Shown here: positions 4,300 to 61,592 of the stretch, one piece after another
Layout: every line of letters begins with the position of its first letter
Numbering within the stretch: position 1 is the first letter of the stretch
IMG/VR virus record: IMGVR_UViG_3300046522_000316
Location: 64,001-128,000 of that record
From: a virus
Lineage: Duplodnaviria > Caudoviricetes
Length of the DNA: 64,000 bases
Reading direction: 5' to 3' (one strand)
The notes under the pieces: generated by a model
What the model was told of the DNA's origin: nothing
The model's input: the letters and a program-made list of their open reading frames with translations, nothing else
Database searches by the model: none
Position numbers and translations under genes: made by a program

Positions 4300-4605
4300 C
4301 TATTTACGAGTCCATGAGAGTTCCAAATCGTAACCGAGTTTGGTGGCGATCACGATTAACACATCGAGGTCGGCATGCACCAATTTCTCATGGTCATTTT
4401 CTGGAACTTCGTCATAGAAATACGGAGTGAGTTCGCGATTCAGCGGCCCGCCCATGACAAGGTATTTACTGCGCACAAATTCACGAAAAAGGCGGTCATG
4501 GTCGAGACGCGGTTTGCCCTTGAGTGAGGGCCGGGATTGACGATCCAATTCGTTGATGATCAGAGCGTAAAGTTCCCGCTTCATTTTATTTACAGTATGG
4601 TTCAT
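4300..4605 (-). CDS. Hypothetical protein
   Basis: ATG at 4605 overlaps the upstream stop (ATGA), so it is preferred over the 4653 start. Confidence 0.7.
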   Translation of the reverse strand: MNHTVNKMKRELYALIINELDRQSRPSLKGKPRLDHDRLFREFVRSKYLVMGGPLNRELTPYFYDEVPENDHEKLVHADLDVLIVIATKLGYDLELSWTRK

Positions 4606-4994
4606 TCGCGATTTACCGTGACCGTGAAGTGGATGCGTTTGAGGGGCTGGCACAACTGGAATTCGGTGTAGACAGTGCCGAGTTGCTTGCGCCCTACTTT
4701 GTGCGCGTGGCGGCGACCGTACAGCGTGAGGTCAAGGATTTTCTTTCCGTCCGTATCGTTGAGGCGAACAACGCAGCGATTTTTAATATCGTGGATTGAG
4801 TAGGCCGCAACCTGTGCCGAAAACGGATCGTAAATGGCGCCACTCGTTTTGAGGTCTTCCATGAATTCGCTAATGTGTTTGCCGAATTCTTCGCGCTCAC
4901 GTTTTTCGTCACGCGGTGCCGTTACGATTTCTTCAACCTGTTGCTGGATGTGAGCCAACAGGCGGCGCGCATTGATCTTTTCGAGCGGAGTCAT
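4602..4994 (-). CDS. Hypothetical protein
   Basis: Translationally coupled ORF in the - strand operon. Confidence 0.7.
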   Translation of the reverse strand: MTPLEKINARRLLAHIQQQVEEIVTAPRDEKREREEFGKHISEFMEDLKTSGAIYDPFSAQVAAYSIHDIKNRCVVRLNDTDGKKILDLTLYGRRHAHKVGRKQLGTVYTEFQLCQPLKRIHFTVTVNRE

Positions 4995-5308
4995 GCGAGA
5001 TTCCTGTGACGAAGGCGCAGGCAGGAGCCGGGATAAAGAACTTTCGGATCAAACAGATTATTGATGAACGCCACACGGTCGGCGTCCACTTCAAAACGCT
5101 GTGCAATCTCCACCAATTTGTCGTTGGTTTTGATGTGGTAAATGTTGTAGCGGTCGCCCAGTTCACGTTCGTACTGAACATCGCTGAAACATTCGGCGGG
5201 CGGCGTGTAAACGCAACGTGTGCGAAAGATCGGAACGTCCAGCGGATTCAATTGCGCGGCCAGCATTTCGATTTGTTCTTCGCGGTCTAGCTCGACAACT
5301 GCATTCAT
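4991..5308 (-). CDS. LysM-domain protein
   Basis: YHIKTNDKLVEIAQRFEVDADRVAFINNLFDPKVLYPGSCLRL fits the LysM consensus. Confidence 0.75.
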   Translation of the reverse strand: MNAVVELDREEQIEMLAAQLNPLDVPIFRTRCVYTPPAECFSDVQYERELGDRYNIYHIKTNDKLVEIAQRFEVDADRVAFINNLFDPKVLYPGSCLRLRHRNLA

Positions 5309-5715
5309 TGGGCGTCCTCAACGGATTTATAACGATCTTCCCACTCAACAGCCGGGGGATTTTCTGGATCGAATTCGTACAGGCCTTCGTGGCCCGTGAT
5401 TTCCGAAATGGTGATGCGACGATTACCGCCACGGCTCCCGGCTTCCCACACTTCACAATCGAAGAAAGCAACGAGAACATCACGCAGCGTAGGGAACAAT
5501 TCTTTGATTCGTTCCCAACTTTCGTTTTCAAGCATTTCGGTGACGTAAACCCACGACGCATCCTCTTCCGCACGCAGCACGCAGTGGATTGGTTCCTGCC
5601 CACGAATACGGATTTCTTCAAACGTGAGTTTCAGTTTCAGAAGTTCATGCATCGCCATCGTCGTCACCGGGTTTTTCGTTGATAAGGGCCAGACCTTTTT
5701 TGGTGGCCCAACCAC
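5305..5715 (-). CDS. Hypothetical protein (true start probably an internal Met near 5655)
   Basis: Coupled ORF in the operon. Confidence 0.65.
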   Translation of the reverse strand: MVGPPKKVWPLSTKNPVTTMAMHELLKLKLTFEEIRIRGQEPIHCVLRAEEDASWVYVTEMLENESWERIKELFPTLRDVLVAFFDCEVWEAGSRGGNRRITISEITGHEGLYEFDPENPPAVEWEDRYKSVEDAQ

Positions 5716-5896
5716 TGTTCAGGCTCACACCGTAGTCGATGTATCCGCGATCCGCTGCACGCTCCATTGCGCGCCAGCAAACTTTTTCGGATTCACCGGT
5801 TGTTTCAATCAATACGGCGAGCGGAGATAACGCGAATTCTTGCCGCCAGACATAAGCATCAACCACCATGCGATCGGTTACGTCTTTCCGGGCCAT
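5645..5896 (-). CDS. Small phage protein, possibly winged-helix
   Basis: EKVCWRAMERAADRGYIDYGVS..GW.T.KG pattern resembles a small phage protein family. Confidence 0.7.
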   Translation of the reverse strand: MARKDVTDRMVVDAYVWRQEFALSPLAVLIETTGESEKVCWRAMERAADRGYIDYGVSLNSGWATKKGLALINEKPGDDDGDA

Positions 5897-5899
5897 TTT

Positions 5900-6247
5900 T
5901 TAATCCCCTGTAATTGGTTTCCAAAGTTTCGCGTATTTCAAAACATTCGGAAGGTTGTCACTCTGCACGGGCAGCACCACAAGGCACGACGGTTCCCCGT
6001 TGCAGATTGTGTTTTCGTGGCCTTGGTGACATGCCAAAGTTTCACGGATTTTATCGAACTCACGGCGAGTAACACGCACCGTTACTTTGCGGAAAGAGTG
6101 AATAAACCATTCGATGTATTCGGGATATTTTGGATCGTCGAAAATCGTATGGGCAGTCAGGATGGAATGCGCAACCAATGTCGGCACCATGTAATCAGGT
6201 GCTTCGTCGAGAACTGCGATGTACATTTTGCTGTAGCGTTCGTTCAT
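5900..6247 (-). CDS. Peptidyl-tRNA hydrolase type 2 (Pth2)-like protein
   Basis: KMYIAV...VAHS...W...FRKVTVRV...SCLVVLP follows the Pth2 motif order. Confidence 0.6.
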   Translation of the reverse strand: MNERYSKMYIAVLDEAPDYMVPTLVAHSILTAHTIFDDPKYPEYIEWFIHSFRKVTVRVTRREFDKIRETLACHQGHENTICNGEPSCLVVLPVQSDNLPNVLKYAKLWKPITGD

Positions 6248-9330: not shown

Positions 9331-9623
9331 ATTTTGTTCCCCAGTAGCGCCCCTTTTTTAACGAGGGCGTAGGTCATGCCGGATACAACGTGGATATCGA
9401 ATACGAACATGATTTCCACGCTGGCGTTGCCTGTCCAACGCAGACCGACGATGCACGGGAATACTGTCGGCTCTACGTCTGGATTATTTACAGTAGGCAT
9501 CCAGCCCCAGTGGTCGAGGGCATTGATATCGTTTTCGATAAAGAATTCGCGAAGGAATTCACGGTACTCGCTTTCGTCACGAAGTGTTTTGGCTTCGAAG
9601 CCTTCACGCATCATAGCGAACAT
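9327..9623 (-). CDS. Hypothetical protein
   Basis: Start reassigned to MFAMMREG..., which overlaps the sbcC 3' end. Confidence 0.65.
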   Translation of the reverse strand: MFAMMREGFEAKTLRDESEYREFLREFFIENDINALDHWGWMPTVNNPDVEPTVFPCIVGLRWTGNASVEIMFVFDIHVVSGMTYALVKKGALLGNKI

Positions 9624-11907
9624 TGGAAACCCCCTTATATTTCTCAACCGTAACGTAGGAACATTCCGGGTGCAGATGCTTGCCCTTCTGCGTGATGATG
9701 AACACGTGCTGCACCAGCTTACGCAGGAACGGAACGTAGCGTTCAACAAACAGGCCGGTGGTCGCTAAGTCCATGTGGGCATCAGGTTCGTCGAGGATTG
9801 CCAGATTCACCCGGCGACTGTCTTTCGCCATGATTACGCACGCAAGGAAATGCAGCAGACGGAAACTATCCGATTCAGCACCGGACAATTCACGCACGTC
9901 AGAAACGTTACCTTGTCCCCGGTCAACTGTGATATGTACGCCGTCTTCTTTGGCTTCCACTTTGAACTGGAAATTCTCCGCGAAAATCAGCTGCGCATAT
10001 TTGTTGTAGTTCTGTTCTAGGCCGTAAACGATTTCGTGCATCGCGTGCAGCTTCAGCCCTTTGTTGCTGTAGGCCTTCGCCAATATCTTGAAGCGCTTCA
10101 GTTTCCGGATCAGAGGTTTGTATTCCTCGACCTTGAGACTGGCTTCCTCACGTTGCTTTTTCAGCAGTTTCCATTCGGCACGCAGCGAGCTATACCGCAC
10201 GGTGATTTTGTGAGCTTTGCTGTATTTCTTTTCGACCTTTTCCAGCTTGGCTTCGACTTCCGCCAGACGCTTCAGGATATTGTCGTCGGCAGGCACTTCG
10301 TCGAACTCGGCCAGTCGCGCTTTGAGGCGTTTAACTTCGTCCAGCATTTCGAGTTGCTGTTCGATTTTCTCCAGCGACACAACCGGTTGACGCTTCGGCT
10401 GCTTCGGCTTTTCCAGTTCAGACATTTGCTTCGTGATTTCGTCGAAGCGCACTGCGTTTTCGCGCAGGTCTTCGAGTTTTTCCAGTTCAGCACGCAGCGC
10501 CTTGATCTTTTTGCGAGCGCCGTAGAAAGCGCGTTCGTCAAACTTCAGGGCCTTGATGATTTCCGTGTTTTCCTGCTTCGTGATTCGCAGTTCCAACGCG
10601 TGAATCATCGAGTGCGCTTTGCCTTTGCGTTTCTTCGCCTGTGCAATCGTGCGCTCAAGGTCTTTGATGTTGATTTTCTGCATACACGTCGGACACGCGC
10701 CGTCGTCATGATCGTGCAGCAGGTCGGCCAACTTCATTGTCGTTTTGGCGGTGCTGTATTCCTCTTTCAGCGCCTCCATTGGATCGACTTTTTCTTTGTT
10801 GCACTGCGTCAGGAATTTACGCAGATCCGGATCAACATGGTCGTCCAAGTTTTCCAGTTCACGATTGGCTGCGTCGTGCTTGTCCCGAACTTTCTCAAGG
10901 CGTTTATCTTCCGCTTCGAGAACGTCCAGTTCTTCCCGAATTTCTTTGATGCGTTTGCGCAGAGTTTTACTGTCGCCACCGTCGCCCAGTTCTTCGAGTT
11001 GCTTCACCAGTTTTTTCGACCGGCGTGCGTACTTCTCGTTTTCCTCTTCGAACTTTTCCAGCGATTCGTGCAGCTTGCGTTGCTCTTTCAAATCTGCACG
11101 ATCAAAACGGATTTTACCTTGCAGCTTTTTCAGACGTTCGCTGGTGGTCGTGTAGAACTCAACCTGCTTCGACAGGCTTTTCAGTTCCTGACGTTTCGCC
11201 TGCAACTTGTTCACTTTTTTGGACTGGGTGTTGACGATTTCTTTCGCCGCTTCCAGTTCCTTTTCCAGCGTCTTGTTCCAGCCGTTTTTATTCAGCGCAT
11301 CGTTGATGTTCATCAGCTGGTGCGTGAAGGCATCCGACTTGTTCTGCGCGACTTTTACTTCGTCGATTTTCTTTTCGAAATGACGACGCAGCACGTCGAA
11401 CTGATCCAGACGCCACACTTCGCTGATATAGGTCATCCGCGCACGGGGAGTACCGTACAGGAATTCCATTTTCTTCTGCGATTGCAAATGCACATACGAG
11501 TACCATTCATCTGAGGTCAGCGGAATGATTTGTTCGATTTGCGCACGCTGATTGGCTTGGCCCCGCACTTGCAGGTCTTCACCATCGCGCCAGATTTGAT
11601 ACCCGCCCGCCTGTTGTCGAATCCTCCACTTGTGCCCGAGGTTATTCACATCGAATTCAATGAACGATCCTTTCGAGTGGATACGATTTTTCTTTCGGGT
11701 ATCTGCCAACGGCGTCTGTTCAAAACGCACGTTAGGCAGCATCGAGAACAGCAAGGATTTACCGGCGCCGTTGTTTTGGTCTTTGGAGATTTGCGAGTCG
11801 CGGTTGTGCCCGCTAACCGTGGTCAAACCACAGTTGTTAGTGAAATCGAATTCACCCTTTTTGTACGAAACGATACCGCTAAAACGGCTGCCGGTAATCT
11901 CGATCAT
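9604..11907 (-). CDS. sbcC: SbcC/Rad50-family SMC-like ATPase
   Basis: Walker A NGAGKS, coiled coil with CPTC zinc hook, LSGAE signature, Walker B ILDEPD. Confidence 0.92.
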   Translation of the reverse strand: MIEITGSRFSGIVSYKKGEFDFTNNCGLTTVSGHNRDSQISKDQNNGAGKSLLFSMLPNVRFEQTPLADTRKKNRIHSKGSFIEFDVNNLGHKWRIRQQAGGYQIWRDGEDLQVRGQANQRAQIEQIIPLTSDEWYSYVHLQSQKKMEFLYGTPRARMTYISEVWRLDQFDVLRRHFEKKIDEVKVAQNKSDAFTHQLMNINDALNKNGWNKTLEKELEAAKEIVNTQSKKVNKLQAKRQELKSLSKQVEFYTTTSERLKKLQGKIRFDRADLKEQRKLHESLEKFEEENEKYARRSKKLVKQLEELGDGGDSKTLRKRIKEIREELDVLEAEDKRLEKVRDKHDAANRELENLDDHVDPDLRKFLTQCNKEKVDPMEALKEEYSTAKTTMKLADLLHDHDDGACPTCMQKINIKDLERTIAQAKKRKGKAHSMIHALELRITKQENTEIIKALKFDERAFYGARKKIKALRAELEKLEDLRENAVRFDEITKQMSELEKPKQPKRQPVVSLEKIEQQLEMLDEVKRLKARLAEFDEVPADDNILKRLAEVEAKLEKVEKKYSKAHKITVRYSSLRAEWKLLKKQREEASLKVEEYKPLIRKLKRFKILAKAYSNKGLKLHAMHEIVYGLEQNYNKYAQLIFAENFQFKVEAKEDGVHITVDRGQGNVSDVRELSGAESDSFRLLHFLACVIMAKDSRRVNLAILDEPDAHMDLATTGLFVERYVPFLRKLVQHVFIITQKGKHLHPECSYVTVEKYKGVSNVRYDA

Positions 11908-13979
11908 TACGGTTCCAGATATTTTCGGATTTCATTGAGTTGGTCGGCGGCGCTGCCTTGGTGTTCAAAGCGCAGACGTTCTTCCAACATTTTCAAGGTC
12001 AGCGACCATTGTTCATTCGGTCTGTGTGCTTTACAGAATGCTTTGTAGCACATACCCATTGCGTAATAGCCGGGCGGGCCAGTGCGACCGGTAGGGCCGT
12101 CCTCGTTGGGGCCACACGGGCCGGTAATCCCTTCGGGGCCTGTCGTGATTTCAACCTGTTCGCAAAGCAGACCGTTTTCCAGTTCCGCCACCGGGCAATT
12201 GTCTTCGTGCAATTCGTTGCCGAAAGTACGATGTTCACAAATGCATTCGGTAACAGGCACGCCGAGTTCATCAGCCAGTTCACGGCTCATGAAAACAGTC
12301 TCCGGCGTCAGAGTCGATTCGAGAATTGCATCGCGCAATTTGTCGATCTTGACCGTTGCAACTTCTGCGATTTCGTCCAATGCAGCTTCTGCGGCCTGCA
12401 TCAGCAGCGAGATATCACCGGATGTTGAGACAGATCCGATTTTTTCTTCGCCGTGATAAACAGCTGCTTCGTCCTCGACTTCTTCCGCACTTTCTACCGT
12501 GTCGGCACAGCCTGTGAGGAACAACCAATCCACACCATCGACCGATGTAACTTCTGCAACGTTGGTCAACGTCAGAACTTCAACGATGTGTTTTTCATCG
12601 TCCGGATGCAGATTGAATTTCCGGATGAAAACACTGACCTTCACACCACCGTCGAGGAAGTCGGTGATATCTTTCGGGTTGAGACTTTCGATCATCGCGT
12701 AACTGATCAGCGGAACATCGCGATCCGATTTCGGTTTGAACGGTTTGTATTCTTTGCCCTGATAACCAGTTTTCACCGGGAAGGTTTTCGGCGGGAAAGT
12801 CCCGGCCTTCGGGCTGGCGCTGACGGCGGTCTTCTGCGCGTACTGCACGTTCGAAGTGTGTGGCCCTTTCACGATGCTGTCGGGATTGCTCACGTCGTAA
12901 TCGAAATCGACCAGATAACGCGTCACATCGCTGTGATGAATTCGCGTTGTTTCCACGATATCGAAAAGGCGGTAAGGCTCACGGATATTTTCGCAATATT
13001 CGTCCATGATTGCGATTGCATCACTTGGGTCAGTGGTACGGTGCGCAATGTACATGGAACCCGGCACATATTCCAACGTCGGGTCGATAAACTCGGTGCC
13101 ATCCCAACCCATCAACACGCCGCTGCTCGCCACGTCTTCAAAGATTTCCAAGAAACGATCTTTGTCGATGAAATGTTTTTCGCTGATTTCTGCGTACAGC
13201 GAATCACTGGTGAATGCGCCGCGATAGTTCAGCATCCGTGCGCGCAGATCGTCAGAGAAAAGTGTCGGCAAATTGCGGATCTTTTCTGCGTGTGCCAGCG
13301 CCGCTTCGTGATCCTCGGCCAGCGTTTTGTTGTGGTATTCCACCAGCGTTTCCGGAACAGCTTTTTCCAGAACCTGAATCAGGCGCGCAGCCAGATCATC
13401 GTCGGATTCTTCCACAACAGGTTCCGTGATTTCTTGCGCGATTTCTGCAACTGCTTCGACAACGGTTTCAATCGTTTCGTTGAGTAGCGAATAAACCGTG
13501 AGGTTTTTACTCAACAGGCCGTCAGTAACCAGCTTGCGCAGCGGGTTGATCAGCGACGTTCCTTTTGCGAGGCCAAAGTTTTGTGCGATAACGGCGGCGG
13601 TGCGAGGCACACCATCTGCCATGTATTCCGCGATCATTTCAGGCGTGACTTTCATGGCCGTTCCATCGAGTGTTTCATTCGAAGTTTCCGGCACCGACTC
13701 CACAACTGGCACCGGGTCAGGTTTGGTTTCTACCACAGGCGCCAACGCGGCTTCCGCCTGTTGACGTTCCTGTTGACGCTTTTTGAATTCATCGGAAATG
13801 GACAGGCGATTATTTTCCGTCGCCTGCACATAACCCGCCTGTTTCAGACGCTCAAGTGCCCGCGTCAATTGGCTGTGATGCTTTCGCAGTTCATCCCCGT
13901 AATAAGTCAGGGTGCGTCCTTGGTCATTCTTGATTGCGTACAGCAGTTCTACCTCAATCGCGGACAGGTCTGTCATCAC
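11907..13979 (-). CDS. Large acidic protein with N-terminal winged-helix domains
   Basis: MarR-like N-terminal HTH (HSQLTRALERLKQAGYV) and a second wHTH-like segment. Confidence 0.7.
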   Translation of the reverse strand: MMTDLSAIEVELLYAIKNDQGRTLTYYGDELRKHHSQLTRALERLKQAGYVQATENNRLSISDEFKKRQQERQQAEAALAPVVETKPDPVPVVESVPETSNETLDGTAMKVTPEMIAEYMADGVPRTAAVIAQNFGLAKGTSLINPLRKLVTDGLLSKNLTVYSLLNETIETVVEAVAEIAQEITEPVVEESDDDLAARLIQVLEKAVPETLVEYHNKTLAEDHEAALAHAEKIRNLPTLFSDDLRARMLNYRGAFTSDSLYAEISEKHFIDKDRFLEIFEDVASSGVLMGWDGTEFIDPTLEYVPGSMYIAHRTTDPSDAIAIMDEYCENIREPYRLFDIVETTRIHHSDVTRYLVDFDYDVSNPDSIVKGPHTSNVQYAQKTAVSASPKAGTFPPKTFPVKTGYQGKEYKPFKPKSDRDVPLISYAMIESLNPKDITDFLDGGVKVSVFIRKFNLHPDDEKHIVEVLTLTNVAEVTSVDGVDWLFLTGCADTVESAEEVEDEAAVYHGEEKIGSVSTSGDISLLMQAAEAALDEIAEVATVKIDKLRDAILESTLTPETVFMSRELADELGVPVTECICEHRTFGNELHEDNCPVAELENGLLCEQVEITTGPEGITGPCGPNEDGPTGRTGPPGYYAMGMCYKAFCKAHRPNEQWSLTLKMLEERLRFEHQGSAADQLNEIRKYLEP

Positions 13980-15166
13980 TCTTTCTCGGCTAAAAACGCA
14001 CCAACACTGGAATAGAACACGACCGTTTCATCAAGGGTCGCGGTGTTCAGTTTGAGTTCGATTTCACACAGCAAATTTTGCAGTTGGATCAGACTTTTGA
14101 TTCCAGTCTTGACCTTTTCTTTTTTCGCCAGCGCATCGAACAGCTTGCCGTTATACGGCGTGTACTTGTTCATGCCGGTATGCTCGCCAATTCGATATTC
14201 GATCAGCCAGCGGACTTTGTTCAACAGCCCGCGCACACCGCCACAGATTTTGGCAGCTTGCACAACCTTGACATAATCTTTCTGGAAAACTGCCGCAAGG
14301 AAATGCGCAGAAGTTTCGTCCAGATCCGCTTCGATATCCACGAACGACGCGAGGTCGTCAGGATTGTATTTCTTGCCCGAAGCGAGGATAGAAAGAAAAA
14401 TATCCAGCTTCGACACTGCTTCACGCAAAGAGCCGTTACTGGATTCTGCAATTGTGGTCAGGGCCTTTTTCGCTTCCTTCTTGATCGTGTGACCTTCGGC
14501 TTCCGCGATCACAGACATGCGATCAACCAGCGTTGGAATGTCGATTTGCTTCAGACGGAAATGCGTGCAGCGACTGACCAAAGTTTTGTGTACTGCTTCC
14601 GGGTTCGTCGTGCAGAGAATCCAGATTGTGTTCGGTGGTGGATTTTCAGTTGCGGTCAACAACGCTTTTTCAGACGGGCCGCGCAGGGCGTGAACTTCGT
14701 CGAGAATGAAAACGCGTTTGCGGGTGTTCGGCGCGTTGTTCGCGGCGGCGATCAGATTACGGATGCTGGCAATGGAACCATCGACCGCGCAATCGTAATA
14801 GGAAACGTCCGGGTGTTTCTTGAACTGGCAGCTGTAGCACTTGCCGCACAGGTTCAGTTTTTCGCAGTTCACTTGCCGACTGAAGATCAGGGCGAACGTG
14901 GTTTTGCCGCAACCGTAATGCCCGGAGAACATCAACGACGACGGAACTTTTTGACGCTTGAACATGCCTTCGATTGCCGACGTTGCATGATCCTGACCAA
15001 CCACATCTGCCAGTTTGCGCGGGCGATATTCGTTTGCCAGTTGCGAAGTTTCCAGCGTCAGTTTCTCGCCGGATTTTTCACTGGCTTTTTTCTTCGCCTT
15101 TTTCACATTGGCTTCGGTATCAGATTTGAACGTCTTGACTTTCTTTTTTACTTTATCGGTTGCCAT
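13976..15166 (-). CDS. dnaX: DNA polymerase III gamma/tau-like clamp-loader ATPase
   Basis: YRPRKLADVVGQ, GHYGCGKTT, zinc module CxxxxxCxxCxxC, ILDEVH, SRC motif. Confidence 0.92.
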   Translation of the reverse strand: MATDKVKKKVKTFKSDTEANVKKAKKKASEKSGEKLTLETSQLANEYRPRKLADVVGQDHATSAIEGMFKRQKVPSSLMFSGHYGCGKTTFALIFSRQVNCEKLNLCGKCYSCQFKKHPDVSYYDCAVDGSIASIRNLIAAANNAPNTRKRVFILDEVHALRGPSEKALLTATENPPPNTIWILCTTNPEAVHKTLVSRCTHFRLKQIDIPTLVDRMSVIAEAEGHTIKKEAKKALTTIAESSNGSLREAVSKLDIFLSILASGKKYNPDDLASFVDIEADLDETSAHFLAAVFQKDYVKVVQAAKICGGVRGLLNKVRWLIEYRIGEHTGMNKYTPYNGKLFDALAKKEKVKTGIKSLIQLQNLLCEIELKLNTATLDETVVFYSSVGAFLAEKE

Positions 15167-15197: not shown

Positions 15198-15206
15198 ATT
15201 TACAGT
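15198..15206 (-). promoter_or_regulatory. ACTGTAAAT motif upstream of dnaX
   Basis: Exact motif about 30 bp before the ATG. Confidence 0.7.
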
Positions 15207-15472
15207 ATGGTGGCGTTAAGCTCTTTCTTCGCTGCGTAGATACGCACGGCTTTGCGTGCCTCGGCCTCAGATGCCCCCGCATCAATTGCCCGGCGATAAA
15301 TCTCACGCTCCATACGGCGCTGGCTACGGCTTTTGTGTGGCCGCTTGGCCCGTGGCTTTTTCACAGGCTTTTTCGGTTGCACCATGTAAGCCAACAAGCC
15401 GATGGAAAGCCCGATACCAACAGCCCAATAAAAAACATTGATCCAGTCGTCAACTGTCATGAGTATTTCCAT
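15200..15472 (-). CDS. Small membrane protein with a basic C-terminus
   Basis: One hydrophobic helix (VFYWAVGIGLSIGLLAYMV). Confidence 0.65.
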   Translation of the reverse strand: MEILMTVDDWINVFYWAVGIGLSIGLLAYMVQPKKPVKKPRAKRPHKSRSQRRMEREIYRRAIDAGASEAEARKAVRIYAAKKELNATIL

Positions 15473-20845: not shown

Positions 20846-21255
20846 CGCAGGCAGAGCTATCCTTAAAAGTTCAAGCATTCATGCAACGCTTCCGCCTTGC
20901 TTTCTGCACCGACGCTGGGTGTGGGGATTTGCCGGACGCTTTTCTATTACGGGGAACCTTCGGTTCCCGCTCCTAACGCTCCGCGTTAGTCGCTATCGTT
21001 CTCGCTTCGCTCAACTGTCTGGCTTTCTCGCACGTTCAGTGCGATTCTGCCTGTTCCTGTGACTCAAGCGGTTCGATTTGCAGGCTCACTGTGTTCGCAA
21101 CGTTCCAAACGATTTCTCGTTCTGTCACTCAATTGTTCAGCATCCATACTCAATCCACTATTTACAGTTTTCGGATTCATGTTTTTTGGTCGGATTCCCT
21201 GTACCCATTGGGCCAAACGCCGGGTTGCCATTCGAATCATTTGAATAAAAAGGCA

Positions 21256-24482: not shown

Positions 24483-24569
24483 AGATGATCCTCCATTCCC
24501 TATAAATTACTGGCTTGAAAACCGAGGATGCGAATTGTAATTCAGTAGTATGAGTTAAGGAGCAACACC

Positions 24570-28691: not shown

Positions 28692-28726
28692 TTAATCGAC
28701 CTCAAGAATACCAATTTAATAGTATC

Positions 28727-37299: not shown

Positions 37300-37345
37300 A
37301 CTGTAAATATATGGCAGGACAACGAATAATTGACTGCCATATTCC

Positions 37346-43735: not shown

Positions 43736-43757
43736 CGCGAAACTGTAAATCAGAATG

Positions 43758-43787
43758 GAAGGGCTACCCTGTGGCCCTTCCTTTTTT
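43758..43787 (+). terminator. Probable terminator
   Basis: GAAGGGC...GCCCTTC followed by CTTTTTT. Confidence 0.65.
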
Positions 43788-43801
43788 CATTTCTGGAGCC
43801 T

Positions 43802-44263: not shown

Positions 44264-44583
44264 TCATCCGAGGGATAAAGATGGAACTGGCAGAATTTGT
44301 TTCGCACGTTTTGCAATTTGCAGAACATGACGAAATTGCAATTACGAACCATCCCCTTGATATGCATCCTTTCGAGGCTGCTATCGCCCTCAACAGCGCG
44401 TTGGCCCTTGTGCCCGATGGTGAAGCCGTAAAAGTTTTCGGCACCACTGGCGACACACTTATTATCGTGCGCGTGTCGGCCATTCCTGAATATCGTGAAG
44501 CCATTGAATTCGGTTGCGATAAACGACACGCTGAAGAAATCAAACAAATTTGCGAGCGCCCGAACAATGCAGCTACTGACTAG
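44260..44583 (+). CDS. Hypothetical protein
   Basis: Coupled ORF. Confidence 0.65.
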   Translation: MIIRGIKMELAEFVSHVLQFAEHDEIAITNHPLDMHPFEAAIALNSALALVPDGEAVKVFGTTGDTLIIVRVSAIPEYREAIEFGCDKRHAEEIKQICERPNNAATD

Positions 44584-45853: not shown

Positions 45854-46788
45854 GCAATGACATTTCGTACAACGAAGCACATGAGCAACAATTGAAATCG
45901 AGCGAGCGCCAATTGGGCACCGCTACCGAACCGGAAAACGTTACACGTTACAAAGAAAATATTCCGGTTAAAGTTGCCGGTGAATTCCCGGTGCGAATTG
46001 TGCCGCGTGTTGAAGTGGTATTCGGCGCCGTGCTGAATACTGTAAATGAAGTAATAGAACAGCACAAAACGCTGACGCCTTTGATCGGCCACGACAACGG
46101 CGTAGTGGAAGAGGAAGACAATTCGGTTTCCCTCTACAGTCCGCTTTCGCGCAAATACAACGGCGCAGCATTGCAGCCGCTGGAATCGCTTTACGAATTC
46201 CTTGCAGCCCTTGAGCTTGAGCAATATTTGATTGTCTGCGAAGACTCGGTATTGCAGCAGCGCATTCAAGGTCTGATCGACACCCTGCATTCGCAATTGC
46301 AGGATACGTTCGGTGGCCCGGCCTTCGAACAACACGGCCTCGATTTTTCCGTGGCCCGCAGTGATTATTTCTCTACCAGCGTCACGCAGTACACGGTGGA
46401 AGAGAAAACTGTAAATAATATTCATCTGGTGATTCGTGTGTACATTCACGCGGCCAGCTTGACGAATACCCCTGACGATCCTGTCGAAGCTATTAACAGC
46501 GCATTCGGTGCGCCTTACCGGCAAGTGATCAAAAACTTCGCGACTGCAACCAAGATCAAAACGCAGATTGCAGTTGCATTTGATGTTTCTAATTTCACTG
46601 TACGGCCTAACCTTCTGACTCTGTTCACCGCGCTTTGCGCAGAACCGGGCGCACAAGCGGACGCTGTAAACAAAGACGATCATATCGACGCAAACGTAAT
46701 TGTTTCCGTCGCGCTGACAAACCCAAACGCCAAGGTGAAGACTGCCCCGAAAAAGGGTGTGGCACCGGCAAAACGCAAAGGTAGTTAA
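45850..46788 (+). CDS. Hypothetical protein with a basic C-terminus
   Basis: 312-aa ORF. Confidence 0.75.
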   Translation: MSNDISYNEAHEQQLKSSERQLGTATEPENVTRYKENIPVKVAGEFPVRIVPRVEVVFGAVLNTVNEVIEQHKTLTPLIGHDNGVVEEEDNSVSLYSPLSRKYNGAALQPLESLYEFLAALELEQYLIVCEDSVLQQRIQGLIDTLHSQLQDTFGGPAFEQHGLDFSVARSDYFSTSVTQYTVEEKTVNNIHLVIRVYIHAASLTNTPDDPVEAINSAFGAPYRQVIKNFATATKIKTQIAVAFDVSNFTVRPNLLTLFTALCAEPGAQADAVNKDDHIDANVIVSVALTNPNAKVKTAPKKGVAPAKRKGS

Positions 46789-46793
46789 ATCTC

Positions 46794-47351
46794 ATGGCAA
46801 AGCCAGAAAAAACCGTTAAAGCAAAAGCACGCACCAAAGTTTCCCGTCTCGACAAAGCCCTGCGCAAGCTGACCGGCACCAGCGCCAAAACCCCGTTCAG
46901 CATGAAATCCGGCGTGTTCACCGTGACCGGCTTCAGCGTTGTTCCTGCCGAAGTTCCGGGCTACCTGATCGACCGCACCGCGACCCACACCATCTATCGC
47001 CACAAGGCCACCAGCGCCTCGAAGAAAATGGTTGTGTCCGTGTTCGCAAACTCCGACGTTCTGCAACTGCTGGGCGGCAAGGAAGGCGGTAGCGTTACCG
47101 TTCGCCGTCGTTCCGCTTTCACCAGCGCAACCGGCACCCTGAAATTCGACGGCACTTCGGTTATCGTTACCGACACTGACGGCGGTGTTGCCGTGTTCGA
47201 TCTGGCCGCTGGCGATTACGAAATCAAAGCAGCCGATACCGAAGGTTCGCAAACTTCCGGTCGTGGCGTGAAATCGTCTTCCGACGAAGGCAAGAAGAAA
47301 AAGAAAGTCGTCGATATCAAAGAAGGCGGCAAGAAAAAAGCAAAAAAGTAA
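46794..47351 (+). CDS. Basic protein with a poly-Lys tail
   Basis: Strong codon bias; ends GKKKKKVVDIKEGGKKKAKK. Confidence 0.8.
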   Translation: MAKPEKTVKAKARTKVSRLDKALRKLTGTSAKTPFSMKSGVFTVTGFSVVPAEVPGYLIDRTATHTIYRHKATSASKKMVVSVFANSDVLQLLGGKEGGSVTVRRRSAFTSATGTLKFDGTSVIVTDTDGGVAVFDLAAGDYEIKAADTEGSQTSGRGVKSSSDEGKKKKKVVDIKEGGKKKAKK

Positions 47352-47409
47352 CTAACACCCGGTACATGGGCGACCTCGACTGAGCGCGCCCGTGACCACC
47401 TCGCAGTAA

Positions 47410-47455
47410 ACTGTAAATACACTGTACAAGATGTGCAGTGCAGAAAACTGTAAAT
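47410..47455 (+). promoter_or_regulatory. Tandem ACTGTAAAT motifs upstream of the poly-Glu gene
   Basis: Exact copies at 47410 and 47447, plus an ACTGTACAA variant at 47421. Confidence 0.7.
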
Positions 47456-47494: not shown

Positions 47495-48001
47495 ATGGCT
47501 AAGCCAGCACCAAAGAAATCCGCCGCCAAATCCAAGCCAGCCCCGAAGAAAGCCGGCAAGAAAAAATCGGCTCCGGAAATCACCGCTGACGATCTGAACC
47601 TGATCAACATGGATGTGCTGTCGCAAATCCTGATCGCGTTCCAAGACAAAGGCTTCGAAACCATCGAAGACGTGATCGGCGCCGTGCAGCAACTGATCGA
47701 AAGCGAAGAGGAAGAGGAAGAAGAGGAAGAAGAGGAAGAAGAGGAAGAGGAAGAAGAGGAAGAGGAAGAGGAAGAGGAAGAGGAAGAAGAGGAAGAGGAA
47801 GAGGAAGAAGAGGAAGAGGAAGAGGAAGAGGAAGAAGAGGAAGAGGAAGAAGAGGAAGAGGAAGAGGAAGAGGAAGAGGAAGAAGAGGAAGAGGAAGAAG
47901 AGGAAGAAGAGGAAGAGGAAGAGGAAGAGGAAGAGGAAGAGGAAGAGGAAGAGGAAGAGGAAGAGGAAGAGGAAGAAGAGGAAGAGGAAGACGACGAATA
48001 A
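47495..48001 (+). CDS. Bipolar protein with a basic N-terminus and a 95-residue poly-Glu tract
   Basis: ATG at 47495 after a GGAG RBS; MAKPAPKK...IES-E95-DDE. Confidence 0.85.
   Translation: MAKPAPKKSAAKSKPAPKKAGKKKSAPEITADDLNLINMDVLSQILIAFQDKGFETIEDVIGAVQQLIESEEEEEEEEEEEEEEEEEEEEEEEEEEEEEEEEEEEEEEEEEEEEEEEEEEEEEEEEEEEEEEEEEEEEEEEEEEEEEEEEEEEEEEEEEEEEEEEDDE
47705..47989 (+). repeat. 285-bp pure-purine (GAA/GAG)n tract
   Basis: 95 consecutive GAR codons. Confidence 0.95.
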
Positions 48002-52988: not shown

Positions 52989-53153
52989 ATGTTCCGAAAT
53001 AAACAACGTGGCTACATCGACTTCAGTGGTATCGGTACATTTCTGATTTGCGTGGGCGTCGTCGGTGGCATTTTGATCGGCGGCATTATTTTCAAAGTCA
53101 TTCCGTGGCTGTGGGATCTTTCGAAACCGTGGCTGCACCAAATCACAGGGTGA
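52989..53153 (+). CDS. 54-aa single-pass membrane protein with a prepilin-like leader
   Basis: MFRNKQRGYIDFSGIGTFLICVGVVGGILIGGIIFKVIPWLWDLSKPWLHQITG; AGGAGG RBS; absent from the ORF track. Confidence 0.7.
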   Translation: MFRNKQRGYIDFSGIGTFLICVGVVGGILIGGIIFKVIPWLWDLSKPWLHQITG

Positions 53154-53158
53154 AGACT

Positions 53159-53668
53159 ATGCAACATCGCAGTATTACCGATGAAGACTTGCGCGACTTT
53201 CTGGAAGACGAAAACATCACCGACATTTCTTTCGTGGCGCAGGGCCAAGTCCCGTACCACAACGGTGTGCAGCTTTTCGAAAAAGAATACGTCGGTCAAG
53301 GCCCTGACGTAGATTCCGCAATTGAAGGCGCCATGGCTACGTTCAGTGCTGAATATCGCGGCGAACGCGTCTACACTCGCGGCGTTCAGTTGTCCTCTAC
53401 TGACTCCGGCATTCTCGCTGTGTTCGTCGCGGCGATTCGTCCGGCTCCGAAAAACTTCAGCCAAATCCTCAACGATTTGAAGAAAGGCGCACAAGCCCGC
53501 CGCGCTGGCTGGAACGGTGCAGGCCAGTGTGTTTATCTGGAACGCTTCGCAGATTTCGACGTGAGTTTCGAACCGTGTTTCGTTCTGCATAACGCGCAAG
53601 GCAAATTGCAACCGGGTTGGATTCCGTCCATGGGTGATCTGCTGGCCGAAGACTGGGAAATCGCGTAA
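53159..53668 (+). CDS. tad2: DUF2829 / Tad2-like anti-defence sponge domain fused to an N-terminal domain
   Basis: NFSQILNDLKKGAQARRAGWNG...VYL...PGWIPSMGDLLAEDW. Confidence 0.8.
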   Translation: MQHRSITDEDLRDFLEDENITDISFVAQGQVPYHNGVQLFEKEYVGQGPDVDSAIEGAMATFSAEYRGERVYTRGVQLSSTDSGILAVFVAAIRPAPKNFSQILNDLKKGAQARRAGWNGAGQCVYLERFADFDVSFEPCFVLHNAQGKLQPGWIPSMGDLLAEDWEIA

Positions 53669-53921: not shown

Positions 53922-54935
53922 ATGTCTGCTGATAAAAATATGACCGGCGAACAAATTCAGCAGATTATGGATATGTTTCTGTACAAGGCACTCGAACCAC
54001 TTGTCCTGTACACGAATATTTTCGATCCGCAAGTTGAGTATCTGTTGCTGCTGGTAGCGACCAACCGTAAACGCAAGCTGAGTTCGTTGGATCGTGGTGA
54101 AGCCGTGGAAAAGCTCGCGGCCTATCTCAGTGTTCAGGATCGCAAGCAGAAATTCGAGTTCATTCGTGCGGCTCGCGTGGAAAGATTTTTCATCCACAAG
54201 TTTCTGATTTCGTTCACTGAACAAAACATGGGCTACGTGAAACGCTACAAGGAATTCTTGCTGAATCCTACCAAGGAAAAGAAGATTGCCCTTGACCGTG
54301 ACGCGGTGCTGATCGGGATGTGTGAGCGCTCGGCACTCTACAACACCCTGCAAATTTGCAACGCGTACCTGAAACGTTTTTACGTGTACCGAAATTCTGT
54401 CGTTGACCTGTACGTGAAGAACGCCAACAAGTGGGCGAAGGCTCACGTGATCGGTGCGCAAGGCCGGTCGAGTTTCAAAGACCTTGTGCAGTCGATTATC
54501 AAGGCTGTAATCACGGCGATGGATAAATACGACAGTCGAAAAGGTGCCTTAACTTCCTACGTCACGTTCTGGACAAAAAACGCGATGAAGGCGAGTAAAG
54601 AACACGAATATGGCGTGGCTTACACTGTGCCGCAAGCGCAGAAGAAAAAGCTTTTCGAGGGGACTAGCCACCACGTCAATTTCAGTGTGAGCCTCGACAC
54701 GATTTACGGCGACGATGACGACGAAGGTTCAAGCATGGCCCTGCATTCTGTTCTGGCGCCGGGCCACACGCTGGAAAAAGGAATCGAAGTCGAACAAAGT
54801 CGCTCGCTTGTGCAGATGCTTGCGAAAAAAGTAGATCCGATGGGCATCGCTCGGTTGAGTCTGGATATTGGCGAGCATTTTACGCCAGAAGAACAGGCAA
54901 TTATGCGCCAGCACATGCTCGAAGAAAAACTGTAA
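53922..54935 (+). CDS. Phage RNA polymerase sigma70-family factor (regions 2-3; region 4 apparently truncated)
   Basis: DLVQ...AMDKYDSRKG.LTSYVTFW.KN (region 2); VSLDTIYGDDD (region 3.2). Confidence 0.82.
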   Translation: MSADKNMTGEQIQQIMDMFLYKALEPLVLYTNIFDPQVEYLLLLVATNRKRKLSSLDRGEAVEKLAAYLSVQDRKQKFEFIRAARVERFFIHKFLISFTEQNMGYVKRYKEFLLNPTKEKKIALDRDAVLIGMCERSALYNTLQICNAYLKRFYVYRNSVVDLYVKNANKWAKAHVIGAQGRSSFKDLVQSIIKAVITAMDKYDSRKGALTSYVTFWTKNAMKASKEHEYGVAYTVPQAQKKKLFEGTSHHVNFSVSLDTIYGDDDDEGSSMALHSVLAPGHTLEKGIEVEQSRSLVQMLAKKVDPMGIARLSLDIGEHFTPEEQAIMRQHMLEEKL

Positions 54936-54944
54936 ATAAACTGA

Positions 54945-55151: not shown

Positions 55152-55778
55152 ATGAGCAATTTGCTTGCACACGCTGACCGTGAATTCGCAATCACCATGC
55201 GGAACATGCGGGCCAATCCGGAAAACGACGAAAGCGATTTGACGATGCAGGAACACATGCATCAAAACGTGCGTGAAATTCTGGAAGTAGTTTCCCGTCA
55301 GGGGCACACCGGTTTCAGCATCAATTTTCTGTTCCAGATGGTTCAGAAAGTTGGAATGTTTGAACCGCTTTCTCCGATCCTCGGCACCGACGACGAATGG
55401 GTTGACGTTGCCAATATCAGCGGCGGGCAACCGATGTTGCAGAACGCTCGCTGTGGTCACATTTTCCGTGATGGTGATTCAGGGGCTTACGATTCCACCG
55501 GTCGCATTGTCGTTTGTGAAGACGGCCAGACCGTGACGAATTATCAGAGCCGGGTTTACATCGAATTTCCGTATGTGCCGACTCGGGTTTACGCCCCGCA
55601 TGGTGAAGACCTAGAACGTTTCACCCGCGCCGGTATTGTGGTTGGTGACGACTACAAAACTGCCGACGAAGTTCGCGAACTTTACAAGGTTCTGAAACGC
55701 ACGGAAGAATTGCGCGAAGCTGGGCAAGCATTTGTTGCAGAAGTAGCGGCAACCGGCCTACCCAACGTAGACGAATAA
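55152..55778 (+). CDS. Hypothetical phage protein
   Basis: HADRE...QGHTGFS...FEPLSPILGTDDEW...QNARC...FPY pattern. Confidence 0.75.
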   Translation: MSNLLAHADREFAITMRNMRANPENDESDLTMQEHMHQNVREILEVVSRQGHTGFSINFLFQMVQKVGMFEPLSPILGTDDEWVDVANISGGQPMLQNARCGHIFRDGDSGAYDSTGRIVVCEDGQTVTNYQSRVYIEFPYVPTRVYAPHGEDLERFTRAGIVVGDDYKTADEVRELYKVLKRTEELREAGQAFVAEVAATGLPNVDE

Positions 55779-55779: not shown

Positions 55780-55788
55780 ACTGTAAAT
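55780..55788 (+). promoter_or_regulatory. ACTGTAAAT motif upstream of the ssb-like/recA operon
   Basis: Exact intergenic motif. Confidence 0.7.
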
Positions 55789-55846: not shown

Positions 55847-57097
55847 ATGGCGACCGCCGTTTTTAAAGGCATGGGCAGCATCCGCACCAACAGTGGCAAG
55901 GGTGATTCGCTCCGCTTGGACGAAGTTGTTGATATCATCCAGTGGCCGAAAAACAAATATTTCCTGTTCCGCATTTTGCCGATCATGCCGCTGCAAGTGC
56001 GTCAGGTCTGGATCAAACTGTGGGCCGGTGGCAAGGGCAAAGAAAAACGCGAAGTGAACATTCCGCGTTACGCTATCGACTTCGATCCGAACGATCCGGA
56101 AACCCCGAAAAAAGGCGTGAAGTGCCCGTACATGGCGCTGGCCGACAAGTTCAAAGGCCAGAAAGAAAAGCCGGTGCGTGCGTCCGACTTCTGGTTGTTC
56201 AACGTGATCGACCGCGACATGCAGGAAGAAGGCCCGCCGCGTAAAGCGTCGAAGCCAACCAAGGAAGAAAAGAATTCCGGTTTCAAGGATATCAATTCTG
56301 AAACTTGGACTCCGGTTCGCGTTGCGCGTCTGACCATGACTTCGATCAACCGACTGCAAGAACTGTCGGAAGAAAACAAAATCAAGTCGAAGAAATCCGG
56401 CAAAACCGCGCAGTACGACGTATCCGATGCGAAGTATGGTTTCGACACCAAACTGAAATTCAAACCGGACGCAGCGGGCACCGACAAATACACCATCGAC
56501 AAAGCGGACGGCCCTACCCCGCTGAGCGACGAAGAGCAAGGCTATCTGACGTGGAACCTCACTGAAGAACTTCTGGACGCCACCGGTCGCATGACCGAAA
56601 AGGCTGCGAAGGAAGACGTTAAGCGTATGGAAATCATCGGCGGCGAAGAACTCGACGATGATGACGAAGACGAAGACGAAAAGCCGAAGAAAAAGAAAGG
56701 CAAATCCACTTCGCTCGACGACGATGACGACGAAGACGAAAAGCCGAAGAAAAAGAAAAAGAAATCTTCCATCGACGATGACGATGATGAAGACGAAAAA
56801 CCGAAAAAGAAAAAGAAGTCCAAGTCCATCGACGACGATGACGACGAAGACGAAAAGCCGAAGAAAAAGAAAAAGTCTTCGGACAAAGACGCCAAGTCTT
56901 CCAAGGTGAAAAAGAAGTCGAAGTCGGACGACGATGACGACGAAAAGCCGAAGAAGAAAAAGAAGGCCAAGGAAGAAGAAGCTCCGAAGAAAAAGAAAAA
57001 ATCTTCGGACAAGGACGAGAAAGGCGGCGCCAAAAAGAAAGTGAAGAAAGACGCCAAGAAAGGCAGCGGCAAGAAAAAGAACGCGTGGGATGACTAA
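55847..57097 (+). CDS. Putative T4 gp32-like ssDNA-binding protein with an alternating acidic/basic tail
   Basis: FRILP...CPY...WLFNVIDR core; position directly upstream of recA. Confidence 0.55.
   Translation: MATAVFKGMGSIRTNSGKGDSLRLDEVVDIIQWPKNKYFLFRILPIMPLQVRQVWIKLWAGGKGKEKREVNIPRYAIDFDPNDPETPKKGVKCPYMALADKFKGQKEKPVRASDFWLFNVIDRDMQEEGPPRKASKPTKEEKNSGFKDINSETWTPVRVARLTMTSINRLQELSEENKIKSKKSGKTAQYDVSDAKYGFDTKLKFKPDAAGTDKYTIDKADGPTPLSDEEQGYLTWNLTEELLDATGRMTEKAAKEDVKRMEIIGGEELDDDDEDEDEKPKKKKGKSTSLDDDDDEDEKPKKKKKKSSIDDDDDEDEKPKKKKKSKSIDDDDDEDEKPKKKKKSSDKDAKSSKVKKKSKSDDDDDEKPKKKKKAKEEEAPKKKKKSSDKDEKGGAKKKVKKDAKKGSGKKKNAWDD
56655..56960 (+). repeat. Coding tandem repeat DDDDDEDEKPKKKK(K) (about 5 units)
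   Basis: GACGATGACGACGAAGACGAAAAGCCGAAGAAAAAG-like units; bounds approximate. Confidence 0.85.
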
Positions 57098-59510: not shown

Positions 59511-59651
59511 CCCCGTGACGCTCGTCGGATGCCGGGGCAACCTAGCGGTCGGGTAGTTGACAGTCGCGGCCCCAGTGTGCTAGGCCCCAGCCCTGCCCAA
59601 GCCCCGCAGCCCGTGGGCGTCTCCGGGCATAACTTCCGATATCGCGTGAGC

Positions 59652-59680
59652 TTGCCTAAGTGCTTGATTTTCGGTAGAAT
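59652..59680 (+). promoter_or_regulatory. Host sigma70-type (early) promoter
   Basis: TTGCCT-17 bp-TAGAAT. Confidence 0.65.
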
Positions 59681-59784
59681 TGACGGGTTCAGCGCGGTCG
59701 TGCTGAGCAACACACTAACGGAATATGGGAAGTTTCATTTCCCTGAATGCCATGCATACAACCAGCAGTTTGAAGGATCGGTAT

Positions 59785-60258
59785 ATGGATATCGACTATC
59801 AGTCATTCGAGTCCGGGGATTTTTCTTGCCTACTCGTAATGTCTAACGGATGCGCAGATTCAATCGGTTATATTGCAGACCACATCCCGCGCAAAGACAG
59901 CGTGCTTGTGGTGGCGTCTCATAAGAATGTTGAGTCGTCGGAAACGGAAGTGGCCGGGTACATTATGGCTACTGCAAATGATCAGGGCATTTATATTCAC
60001 AATGTTCTGGTGCTGGACAATTTCCAACGCAAAGGCATCGCTACAAAGATGCTGATGGAAATCGAAAAACTGATTTGGGAAGGCACTGCGTCATACCCGA
60101 TTATGCTTTTTACAGGCGAAGAAAATAAAGCGGCAATGAATTGTTATGCGGGCGCTGGTTATACCGTTGCGTTACGCATTCCGAATTGTCGCGACTCAGG
60201 CGAAGCACGAATAGCACTGCGTAAAGACAGTGGCGTCGGCTATCATCTGGCCTCATAA
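59785..60258 (+). CDS. GNAT (RimI-like) acetyltransferase
   Basis: IHNVLV...QRKGIATKML (acetyl-CoA motif A) and N.AAMNCY...GY; GAAGGA RBS before 59785. Confidence 0.85.
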   Translation: MDIDYQSFESGDFSCLLVMSNGCADSIGYIADHIPRKDSVLVVASHKNVESSETEVAGYIMATANDQGIYIHNVLVLDNFQRKGIATKMLMEIEKLIWEGTASYPIMLFTGEENKAAMNCYAGAGYTVALRIPNCRDSGEARIALRKDSGVGYHLAS

Positions 60259-60341
60259 AAAGCAGTAGGAGCGAATGGTAATTTTATATTACCGGGGCAG
60301 CATTTAGGCCCTTGCTACGTCTATAATCGGGGATTTACATA

Positions 60342-61592
60342 GTGGCTCATTCTAAATTTGACGACCTGATCAAAGCGCTCAATGCCTTTGAATCCGGTAT
60401 GGCAGAAAATACGCTCACGCGTAAAAGCGACATTATCAAACGGCTTGATGAAATTTCTAACCAAGCCACTATCCTGTTGAATCAGGGTAGCCTCCCAACG
60501 GGTAGCAAATCGACGCTTCTGAAGATCCGGAAACTGGTCAAAGAAACCGCCGAAGGTTTGCGCACCGACGTGTTCAGTTCCTTGGGGCCGATCCGTCGTA
60601 TTTCTCGCGATCATTTGGGCACGCTTCACTCTGCATTGACTTTGCAGCTTGGCGGCGGTCTGACTGCTGAAGAGAAAACGCAAATCCGCGAAAGCTACGC
60701 CTCCGACGAAGACACCGCCAGCGAAGTCGAACGCCTCATTGAAGCATTCGATCCCGGCTCGTTGACCATCGGCGGCACGAAAGTCGATCTGCAATTGGCG
60801 CTGAATCATGTTCGCCAATTTCTGGATCAGAATTTCACGCTCTCGCAATTGCGCTCGATCCAGCCTTACAAATCCGGCGAATTGACTCCGGGCGGAAAGC
60901 CAGTCAAAAATCCTGACTCTGTTTGGAATGACCTCACGTACAGCGAAGTGCTGGCCGCGTCCGAGGAAACCCCAAAAGGCAAAACCCGTCTGGCCGCTCT
61001 CAAGCGCGAACTGGTCAAAAAACACGATGATGATTTGGCGACTCTTTCCGAGTCCTACAAAGAATTGTCGCGTCGTATGCCGCGAACCCTGAAACATCCC
61101 TTTGCCCCAATCTATTATCCTGTTGTTCCGATTTTCCAAGACATTGGCGTTTACAAAAATCCAACCCGTTTGGAAAACGCTGGCCTCAAGGTGACTCGCA
61201 TTGGCGACCACTTTATCGTTCTGGAAAACCAACTGCTGCTGTGCATTGATCTTGATCGCATCGGCATTAAAGACGGCATTCGTTTGACCAAAGACGGCCA
61301 GCGGATGAAAACTGTAAATAATAACAGTGCGTTGGAAACCGAAGTACACAAGATCGTTGGTCACATCAACGAAACGGCTCGCCACTCCGGCACTTCGTTT
61401 GCTGTTGCATCCGATACCATTGTGCGCAATCCGAACAACCCGCGAATCGCTCTCGTCTGGTTGATTGAAGAAAAAGTTCGTAAGAAACTTGCCAACACGT
61501 TGACCAACACAAAAGTTCAGTGGGATATTCCGCGCCATCAAATGGAACCCACGCGCCTTAGCAAACGCCCTGCGCCAGCACGGACGAAGTGA
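60342..61592 (+). CDS. Hypothetical protein (416 aa)
   Basis: Long ORF. Confidence 0.8.
   Translation: MAHSKFDDLIKALNAFESGMAENTLTRKSDIIKRLDEISNQATILLNQGSLPTGSKSTLLKIRKLVKETAEGLRTDVFSSLGPIRRISRDHLGTLHSALTLQLGGGLTAEEKTQIRESYASDEDTASEVERLIEAFDPGSLTIGGTKVDLQLALNHVRQFLDQNFTLSQLRSIQPYKSGELTPGGKPVKNPDSVWNDLTYSEVLAASEETPKGKTRLAALKRELVKKHDDDLATLSESYKELSRRMPRTLKHPFAPIYYPVVPIFQDIGVYKNPTRLENAGLKVTRIGDHFIVLENQLLLCIDLDRIGIKDGIRLTKDGQRMKTVNNNSALETEVHKIVGHINETARHSGTSFAVASDTIVRNPNNPRIALVWLIEEKVRKKLANTLTNTKVQWDIPRHQMEPTRLSKRPAPARTK

Follow-up and report, generated by a model that had tools for sequence, protein, structure and literature searches.

The core of a putative single-box promoter class in a metagenomic jumbo phage related to Lu11 and HRDY3

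The locus and its copies of the motif

The stretch of DNA analysed here (hereafter the window) comprises 64 kb of IMG/VR virus record IMGVR_UViG_3300046522_000316 and contains 18 exact copies of a strand-polarised 9-mer, ACTGTAAAT, 5 on the minus and 13 on the plus strand (hereafter class-1 copies). The window is part of a ~314-kb metagenomic jumbo phage, akin to the Pseudomonas phages HRDY3 and Lu11, and its sigma protein occurs on a metagenomic contig of 314 kb. The alignable DNA has ~77% nucleotide identity to HRDY3 (313 kb) and Lu11 (280 kb), and the window and its relatives have a common gene order: primase, nuclease, gyrB/gyrA, exonuclease, sigma, ssb, recA, topoisomerase-like, and helicase. 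The group of jumbo phages that includes HRDY3 and Lu11, termed "Lupandier", has been described with PaBG at its centre (PMC7412058). As far as known, phages of this type have no RNA polymerase of their own (PMC7412058; PMC13282480), and in such jumbo phages sigma factors of phage origin are thought to redirect the host enzyme (reviewed in PMC13282480).

The gene map was built from codon usage. In this map the genes lie on the minus strand up to ~24.5 kb, followed by a plus-strand island (24.6-26.9 kb), a minus-strand island whose last gene is the primase (26.9-28.7 kb), and plus-strand genes from 28.7 kb on. An exact search recovered all 18 copies with the positions and strands given in a preliminary description of this DNA, from which none was missing. 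The same description had expected about 0.5 copies by chance, which is of the right order, dinucleotide-preserving shuffles yielding 0.25 copies on average and never more than 1. The copies are the following (nt, nucleotides):

4588-4596, minus strand: flanked by the stop of 4602-4994 and by an ATG, in frame, at 4584; its most likely target is the metallophosphatase gene 3241-4290 downstream; HRDY3 has ACTGTAAAC at this place.
9486-9494, minus strand: downstream of the SbcC-like gene 9604-11907; the sole copy conserved in neither HRDY3 nor Lu11.
15198-15206, minus strand: 31 nt upstream of the clamp-loader (dnaX-like) gene 13976-15166, its TAA being the stop of the upstream open reading frame (ORF); HRDY3 and Lu11 each have a copy in the syntenic neighbourhood.
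21160-21168, minus strand: intergenic, ~90 nt downstream of a strong terminator (21286-21261); HRDY3 has ACTGTAAAC.
28727-28735, minus strand: 35 nt upstream of the primase gene 27567-28691, within a divergent intergenic region of 57 nt; kept in HRDY3 and Lu11 amid diverged flanks.
30676-30684, plus strand: after a T-run terminator and 26 nt before gene 30711, the first of the gyrB/gyrA operon; the Lu11 orthologue is annotated as a promoter.
37300-37308, plus strand: directly after a stop codon and 37 nt before gene 37346, with a hairpin directly 3'; the Lu11 orthologue (L001 16640-16655) is annotated "putative middle/late promoter".
38685-38693, plus strand: inside the 5'-3' exonuclease gene 38025-38861, with 238 nt to gene 38932; unchanged in both HRDY3 and Lu11.
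43742-43750, plus strand: between the stop of 42599-43735 and a strong terminator hairpin (43757-43781); atypical, and likewise in HRDY3.
45392-45400, plus strand: first of four intragenic copies in genes 44495-45853 and 45850-46788, in frame as Thr-Val-Asn; position kept in HRDY3 (as ACTGTAAAC) and Lu11.
45743-45751, plus strand: second of these four, 98 nt before gene 45850.
46039-46047, plus strand: third of the four; exact in HRDY3 and Lu11.
46408-46416, plus strand: fourth of the four.
47410-47418, plus strand: leading copy of a tandem pair that precedes the poly-Glu gene (start ATG 47495).
47447-47455, plus strand: second of the pair, 39 nt before the same ATG; predicted start A at 47463.
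54929-54937, plus strand: overlaps the stop of a sigma gene (CTG TAA), upstream of a small ORF and the Tad3 gene 55152-55778; kept in HRDY3.
55780-55788, plus strand: 58 nt before the ssb gene 55847-57097, which is followed by recA; predicted start A at 55796.
61311-61319, plus strand: inside gene 60342-61592; also kept in the metagenomic relative L066; the class-1 copy that most closely precedes the topoisomerase-like gene and a second sigma-like gene.

Six of these copies fall within 2 kb (45392-47455) upstream of the poly-Glu gene (47495-48001), four in two function-unassigned genes and two as the tandem pair. The cluster is conserved in Lu11 and HRDY3, and the tandem pair is also found in both of these phages and in the PaBG-like metagenomic relative L067 (3729 and 3769). 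The poly-Glu gene itself displays a very strong codon bias.

Orientation, placement and conservation

As the preliminary description had it, every copy in the window points in the direction of the local gene (18/18), and the same orientation prevails in Lu11 (36/36), HRDY3 (50/51), and the Erwinia phage Y3 (40/41). The minus-strand copy at 28727 is no departure from this pattern, serving the primase in a small minus-strand island between plus-strand genes. The reverse complement of the motif holds no stop codon in any frame; coding bias, which would favour the opposite strand, therefore cannot explain the co-orientation. Two of the three reading frames of the full motif contain a stop codon, and it is for this reason that every intragenic copy reads ACT-GTA-AAT (Thr-Val-Asn), and that the sigma gene and ORF 15200-15472 end on the TAA of the motif. 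A repeated-peptide origin of the Thr-Val-Asn copies was rejected in view of the stops in the other two frames and of the flanks, which show no repeat.

The intergenic share of the copies amounts to 45-58%, against 9-12% of non-coding DNA, a 4-5-fold enrichment (P 7e-4 to 4e-13), and the gap between the motif and the next start codon is usually 26-58 nt. Longest-ORF calls leave 8 window copies fully intergenic. Once starts and stops are corrected, some 10 fall between genes or onto a stop codon, and the truly intragenic ones number 6-8. As previously reported, copies lie a short way before several of these genes, at 31 nt for the dnaX-like gene, 35 for the primase gene, 26 for the operon that holds gyrB, 58 for ssb, and 39 and 76 for the poly-Glu gene, and the association with replication and recombination genes likewise holds.

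An exact, over-represented, and strand-polarised word that is densest in the replication module could also be a polar DNA signal apart from transcription, namely a Chi-like site, a packaging- or replication-orienting sequence, or a primase site. However, the polarity tracks single genes and not replication arms. The lone minus-strand primase copy stands amid plus-strand genes in the window, in Lu11, and in HRDY3, the copies of this island thus flipping with a single gene block in three genomes. The fixed gap to start codons and the strong enrichment between genes also speak against such a signal. We consider it highly improbable, including its Chi-like form, the alternative that the preliminary description had set against its own promoter reading.

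At orthologous positions, HRDY3 retains 17 of the 18 copies of the window, and Lu11 at least 14. At all 14 directly aligned HRDY3 sites ACTGTAAA is retained between flanks that are 51-86% identical, and the last base of the motif is often C in this phage. An outward-pointing copy is found in 7 of the 12 divergent junctions of four genomes, the one in the 57-nt primase junction being conserved in three phages. The order terminator then motif occurs in 13 cases, often within 4-24 nt, and the reverse order in 3-4 cases. The site upstream of ssb, between the sigma gene and ssb, reaches furthest. It reads AAACTGT[A/T/C]AA in PaBG, Y3, AD1, and five metagenomic relatives, and is kept down to 37% sigma identity and across 38% to 55% G+C. 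Motif, polarity, placement, and conservation are in this sense direct observations.

Strict co-orientation with transcription, both between and inside genes, is also what an RNA-level element would display, with ACUGUAAAU in polycistronic mRNA acting as a processing or protein-binding site (e.g., for a phage endoribonuclease or a translational regulator). Hairpins directly follow copies 37300, 43742, 47410, and 28727, as might be expected of such a site. Yet copies stand at the heads of transcription units where a short divergent junction, for instance the 57-nt one before the primase, leaves no room for a separate upstream promoter, and they commonly lie 4-24 nt after terminators. Furthermore, a conserved A at a fixed distance of 8 nt from the motif (see below) fits a start site. 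An RNA-level function is thus quite unlikely.

Anatomy of the element and its annotation in Lu11

For an information profile, the copies were pooled within each of four genomes. In all four, information content is limited to aAAACTGTAAATA and to one A exactly 8 nt past the final T. The profile of the pooled copies contains no -35-like signal upstream, in agreement with the preliminary description. It therefore lacks the conserved -35 hexamer that a canonical sigma-70 promoter has 16-18 bp upstream of its TATAAT-like -10, and a lone -10-like 8-mer of this kind is the configuration of T4-type late promoters. One-mismatch sites in the window are at chance level (11 vs. ~9 expected), and the element is therefore all-or-none in the window phage.

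Orientation, intergenic enrichment, conserved islands, operon-head position, and the +1-like A together provide good comparative support for the previously proposed promoter reading, and the motif is very likely a promoter. It would consist of one -10-like box, TAAATA, which an invariant AACTG precedes, with no -35. If the conserved A is taken as +1, the box falls at about -12 to -7, and transcription would most likely start at this A, 8 nt past the final T. The predicted start positions in the window are 55796, 47463, 30692, 15190, and 28719-28720.

The composition of the box raises the question of whether the reader of the promoter might be the holoenzyme with the primary sigma-70 of the host, perhaps remodelled by a small co-factor from the phage. 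TAAATA shares T-12, A-11, and A-9 with TATAAT, and a TG lies just upstream. In addition, the hosts of the family vary (Pseudomonas, Erwinia, Dickeya) but sigma-70 is conserved among them, and both phage sigma factors (see below) are candidate readers. Nevertheless, the -35 element is missing, the TG stands one position outside the extended -10 register, and position -7 has A in place of T; established sigma-70 rules would rate such a box a poor promoter. Moreover, sigma-70-like sites are not enriched in the window when compared with shuffles (10 vs. 15 and 8 vs. 13 expected), the invariant AACTG has no counterpart in sigma-70 promoters, and phage sigma genes co-occur with the motif throughout the family. 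A reading by the host factor is, in our view, unlikely.

The late promoters of T4, TATAAATA, are read by gp55 together with gp33 and the gp45 clamp. Like these, the window motif is a single, near-invariant 8-bp -10-like box with no -35, TGTAAATA being identical to the T4 box at 7 of 8 positions, and in both systems numerous copies are found at, or within, the 3' ends of the preceding genes. In contrast to T4, the window motif has an extra invariant AAC upstream and serves DNA-metabolism rather than virion genes.

The preliminary description had proposed a "private" phage promoter. This part of it does not stand, because the motif is common to the whole jumbo phage family and already annotated in Lu11 (JQ768459). 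The GenBank record of Lu11 (JQ768459.1 / NC_017972) contains 16-nt regulatory features named "putative middle/late promoter", and all five of those examined overlap (A)CTGTAAAT(A); other sites in the record are labelled sigma-70-like early promoters. The record is reportedly linked to Adriaenssens et al. 2012 (J Virol 86:6369). The core CTGTAAAT(A) is present in all 18 window copies, so that the Lu11 word is identical and of the same polarity. Orthologous sites precede the primase, the gyrase operon, and the exonuclease operon, and the synteny of sigma, ssb, and recA is the same, although Lu11 is a different phage with ~77% nucleotide identity over the alignable parts. In the record parts examined, the Lu11 features mark only copies between genes, conserved intragenic ones such as 17954, 24281, and 48793 being unmarked. 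To judge by this correspondence, the motif is a known, predicted Lu11 promoter in a new relative, and is neither private nor new for the lineage. The additions made here are the delimitation of the element, a predicted +1, the depth across the family, and a lead towards two sigma factors and two motif classes.

Maximal-order Markov k-mer statistics were unusable in the relatives, because the motif's own sub-words predict the motif, and a second-order model was used instead. Lu11 contains 36 exact copies of the 9-mer (0 of a control word). Apart from acidic-repeat coding words, ACTGTAAATA is the most over-represented Lu11 10-mer (28 vs. 0.27 expected), and its Y3 counterpart is TCTGTAAATA (22 vs. 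0.48 expected). PaBG has few exact copies of the 9-mer, with the variant ACTGTCAAT before ssb. Class-1 copies in Lu11 precede the primase, gyrase, dCTP deaminase, and ligase genes.

Candidate sigma factors, a second motif class and the points on either side

Two sigma-like genes lie near or at the right end of the window:

53922-54935, plus strand: sigma-A, a divergent sigma-70-family factor and candidate reader of the motif.
62993-64000, plus strand, running off the window end: sigma-B, a second sigma-like gene, orthologue of PaBG_00112 and alternative candidate reader.

Sigma-A matches the Pfam family Sigma70_r2 (PF04542) with 27.1 bits (cut-off 24) and PHROG 17569, "RNA polymerase sigma factor", with an E value of 5e-137. 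Its profile matches regions 2.1-2.3 of solved sigma factors. The AlphaFold model has a predicted local distance difference test (pLDDT) score of 81, and the top fold matches in the Protein Data Bank (PDB) are all sigma-70 chains. Profile and model thus identify sigma-A as a bona fide divergent sigma. No Sigma70_r4 or other region-4 family is recorded in sigma-A or in 85 homologues, and in the model the C-terminal module is only ~50 amino acids long, with three predicted helices. This fits a missing or reduced region 4, which would in turn agree with a promoter that has no -35 box. No gp55- or gp33-like match came up, though no search was aimed at gp33. What sets the candidate sigma of the window apart from the gp55 system of T4 is its sigma-70-like fold, together with a region 2 that is recognisably that of sigma-70.

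The synteny of sigma-B agrees with that in PaBG and HRDY3. Its HRDY3 orthologue matches Sigma70_r2 with 20 bits, below threshold, and gene 112 of PaBG has been suggested as a potential sigma (PMC7412058). Sigma-A and sigma-B co-occur in 80 of 85 phage records, and because of this co-occurrence a comparison of their presence is not informative. None of the promoters upstream of the two genes is decisive as to which sigma would act earlier. Sigma-A is flanked by two plus-strand genes of anti-Thoeris type, one with a Tad2-like domain (53048-53668; 70.3 bits) and a Tad3 gene (55152-55778; 95.7 bits). The latter lies downstream of the class-1 copy at 54929, and the same Tad2-like/Tad3 pair is found in the metagenomic relative L066.

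A second motif, TAATTTA (also written TAATTTA(A)), forms class 2, with three copies in the window:

1641-1647, minus strand: class-2 copy.
3200-3206, minus strand: class-2 copy.
24503-24509, minus strand: class-2 copy, in a divergent junction that has no class-1 copy.

TAATTTA is not over-represented in the window alone. Among the relatives, it is intergenic at 16 of 20 sites in Lu11, 16 of 19 in HRDY3, 10 of 13 in Y3, and 10 of 14 in PaBG (P 5e-7 to 1e-13), and in these four phages it is co-oriented with the genes. Among the Lu11 sites are those before the genes for the endolysin (12780) and the tail sheath (34700); the Lu11 sites carry no annotation in the record parts examined. TAATTTA is thus a candidate late-promoter class. 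Since class-1 copies precede DNA-metabolism genes and class-2 copies precede lysis and tail genes in Lu11, we read class 1 as "middle" and class 2 as "late", a timing that the genes so preceded support. The "middle" genes served by class 1 would be those for the clamp loader, primase, gyrase operon, exonuclease, ssb/recA, and the poly-Glu protein.

From these data we infer initiation at the class-1 sites, their middle timing, and the identity of the reader. A promoter of this kind would probably be read through a phage sigma. More specifically, there is a good probability that ACTGTAAAT is the core of a phage promoter, aAAACTGTAAATA, that serves DNA-metabolism genes via the host core RNA polymerase together with a phage sigma, the reader being the host core enzyme plus either sigma-A (53922-54935) or sigma-B (62993 onward). 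Assignment of the motif to the product of 53922-54935, as in the preliminary description, is plausible. With a second sigma-like gene and a second motif class, the pairing of sigma to class is left ambiguous.

Several observations weigh against a start signal at these sites. Of the 18 copies, 6 to 8 are intragenic and at a distance of over 100 nt from the start codon that follows. A gap of 7 nt separates copy 43742, and likewise its orthologue in HRDY3, from a strong intrinsic terminator; in the window this is an 11-bp GC-rich hairpin and T-run, motif and terminator together spanning 43742-43790. A transcript starting at 43742 should consequently hold most of the terminator hairpin. Similarly, the hairpin directly after copy 37300 would be truncated by the predicted start site. 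With one-mismatch variants at chance level, the element tolerates less variation than most bacterial promoters, though the late promoters of T4 and those of T7 are comparably strict. The ambiguity of the sigma assignment is a further such point, and a class-1 copy stands 41 nt upstream of the Y3 sigma-A gene itself. Finally, the literature searched contained no transcription start-site mapping for the Lu11-type family. Some copies, for example 43742 or those inside genes (a third or more of the total), may not be productive promoters. Searches on neighbouring questions gave little: the motif letters matched only irrelevant primers in the literature, a paper on Dickeya jumbo phages does not mention promoters, a literature search on HRDY3 found nothing, and a search of sequencing runs listed no RNA run with more than a small share of the window stretch, the best DNA match among the runs being a rhizosphere metagenome.

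In a wider and more tentative scenario, to which we give somewhat less than even chances, the Lupandier family (Lu11, HRDY3, PaBG, Erwinia and Dickeya phages, and many uncultured relatives) might use a two-step cascade of phage sigma factors on two single-box promoter classes with no -35. Class 1 (aAAACTGTAAATA) would drive DNA-metabolism genes and TAATTTA lysis and virion genes, each class being read by sigma-A or sigma-B. Similarly, Bacillus phage SPO1 (gp28, then gp33/34) and phiEco32 have phage sigma-family proteins and distinct phage-specific promoter classes for each gene set; SPO1 promoters are, however, bipartite (-35 and -10), whereas both candidate classes of the window phage are single-box. 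If such a cascade operates, the conserved intragenic and tandem copies would be additional promoters, raising the output of the very highly expressed poly-Glu gene. The pairing of sigma with promoter, and its timing, can now be tested directly in cultured Lu11, HRDY3, or PaBG. The motif also offers a reliable annotation marker for the starts of transcription units in the window phage and related metagenomic genomes.

Two minor observations concern neighbouring genes. An ORF at 61589-62098 (plus strand) with weak matches to HNH-endonuclease PHROGs lies between gene 60342-61592, which holds the last class-1 copy, and the topoisomerase-like gene, and may be a mobile insertion. In distant metagenomic relatives, matches to the Pfam family Intein_splicing are found in genes (L069 8041-9168; L070 20802 onward) that include a gyrA/topoisomerase IV-like gene.

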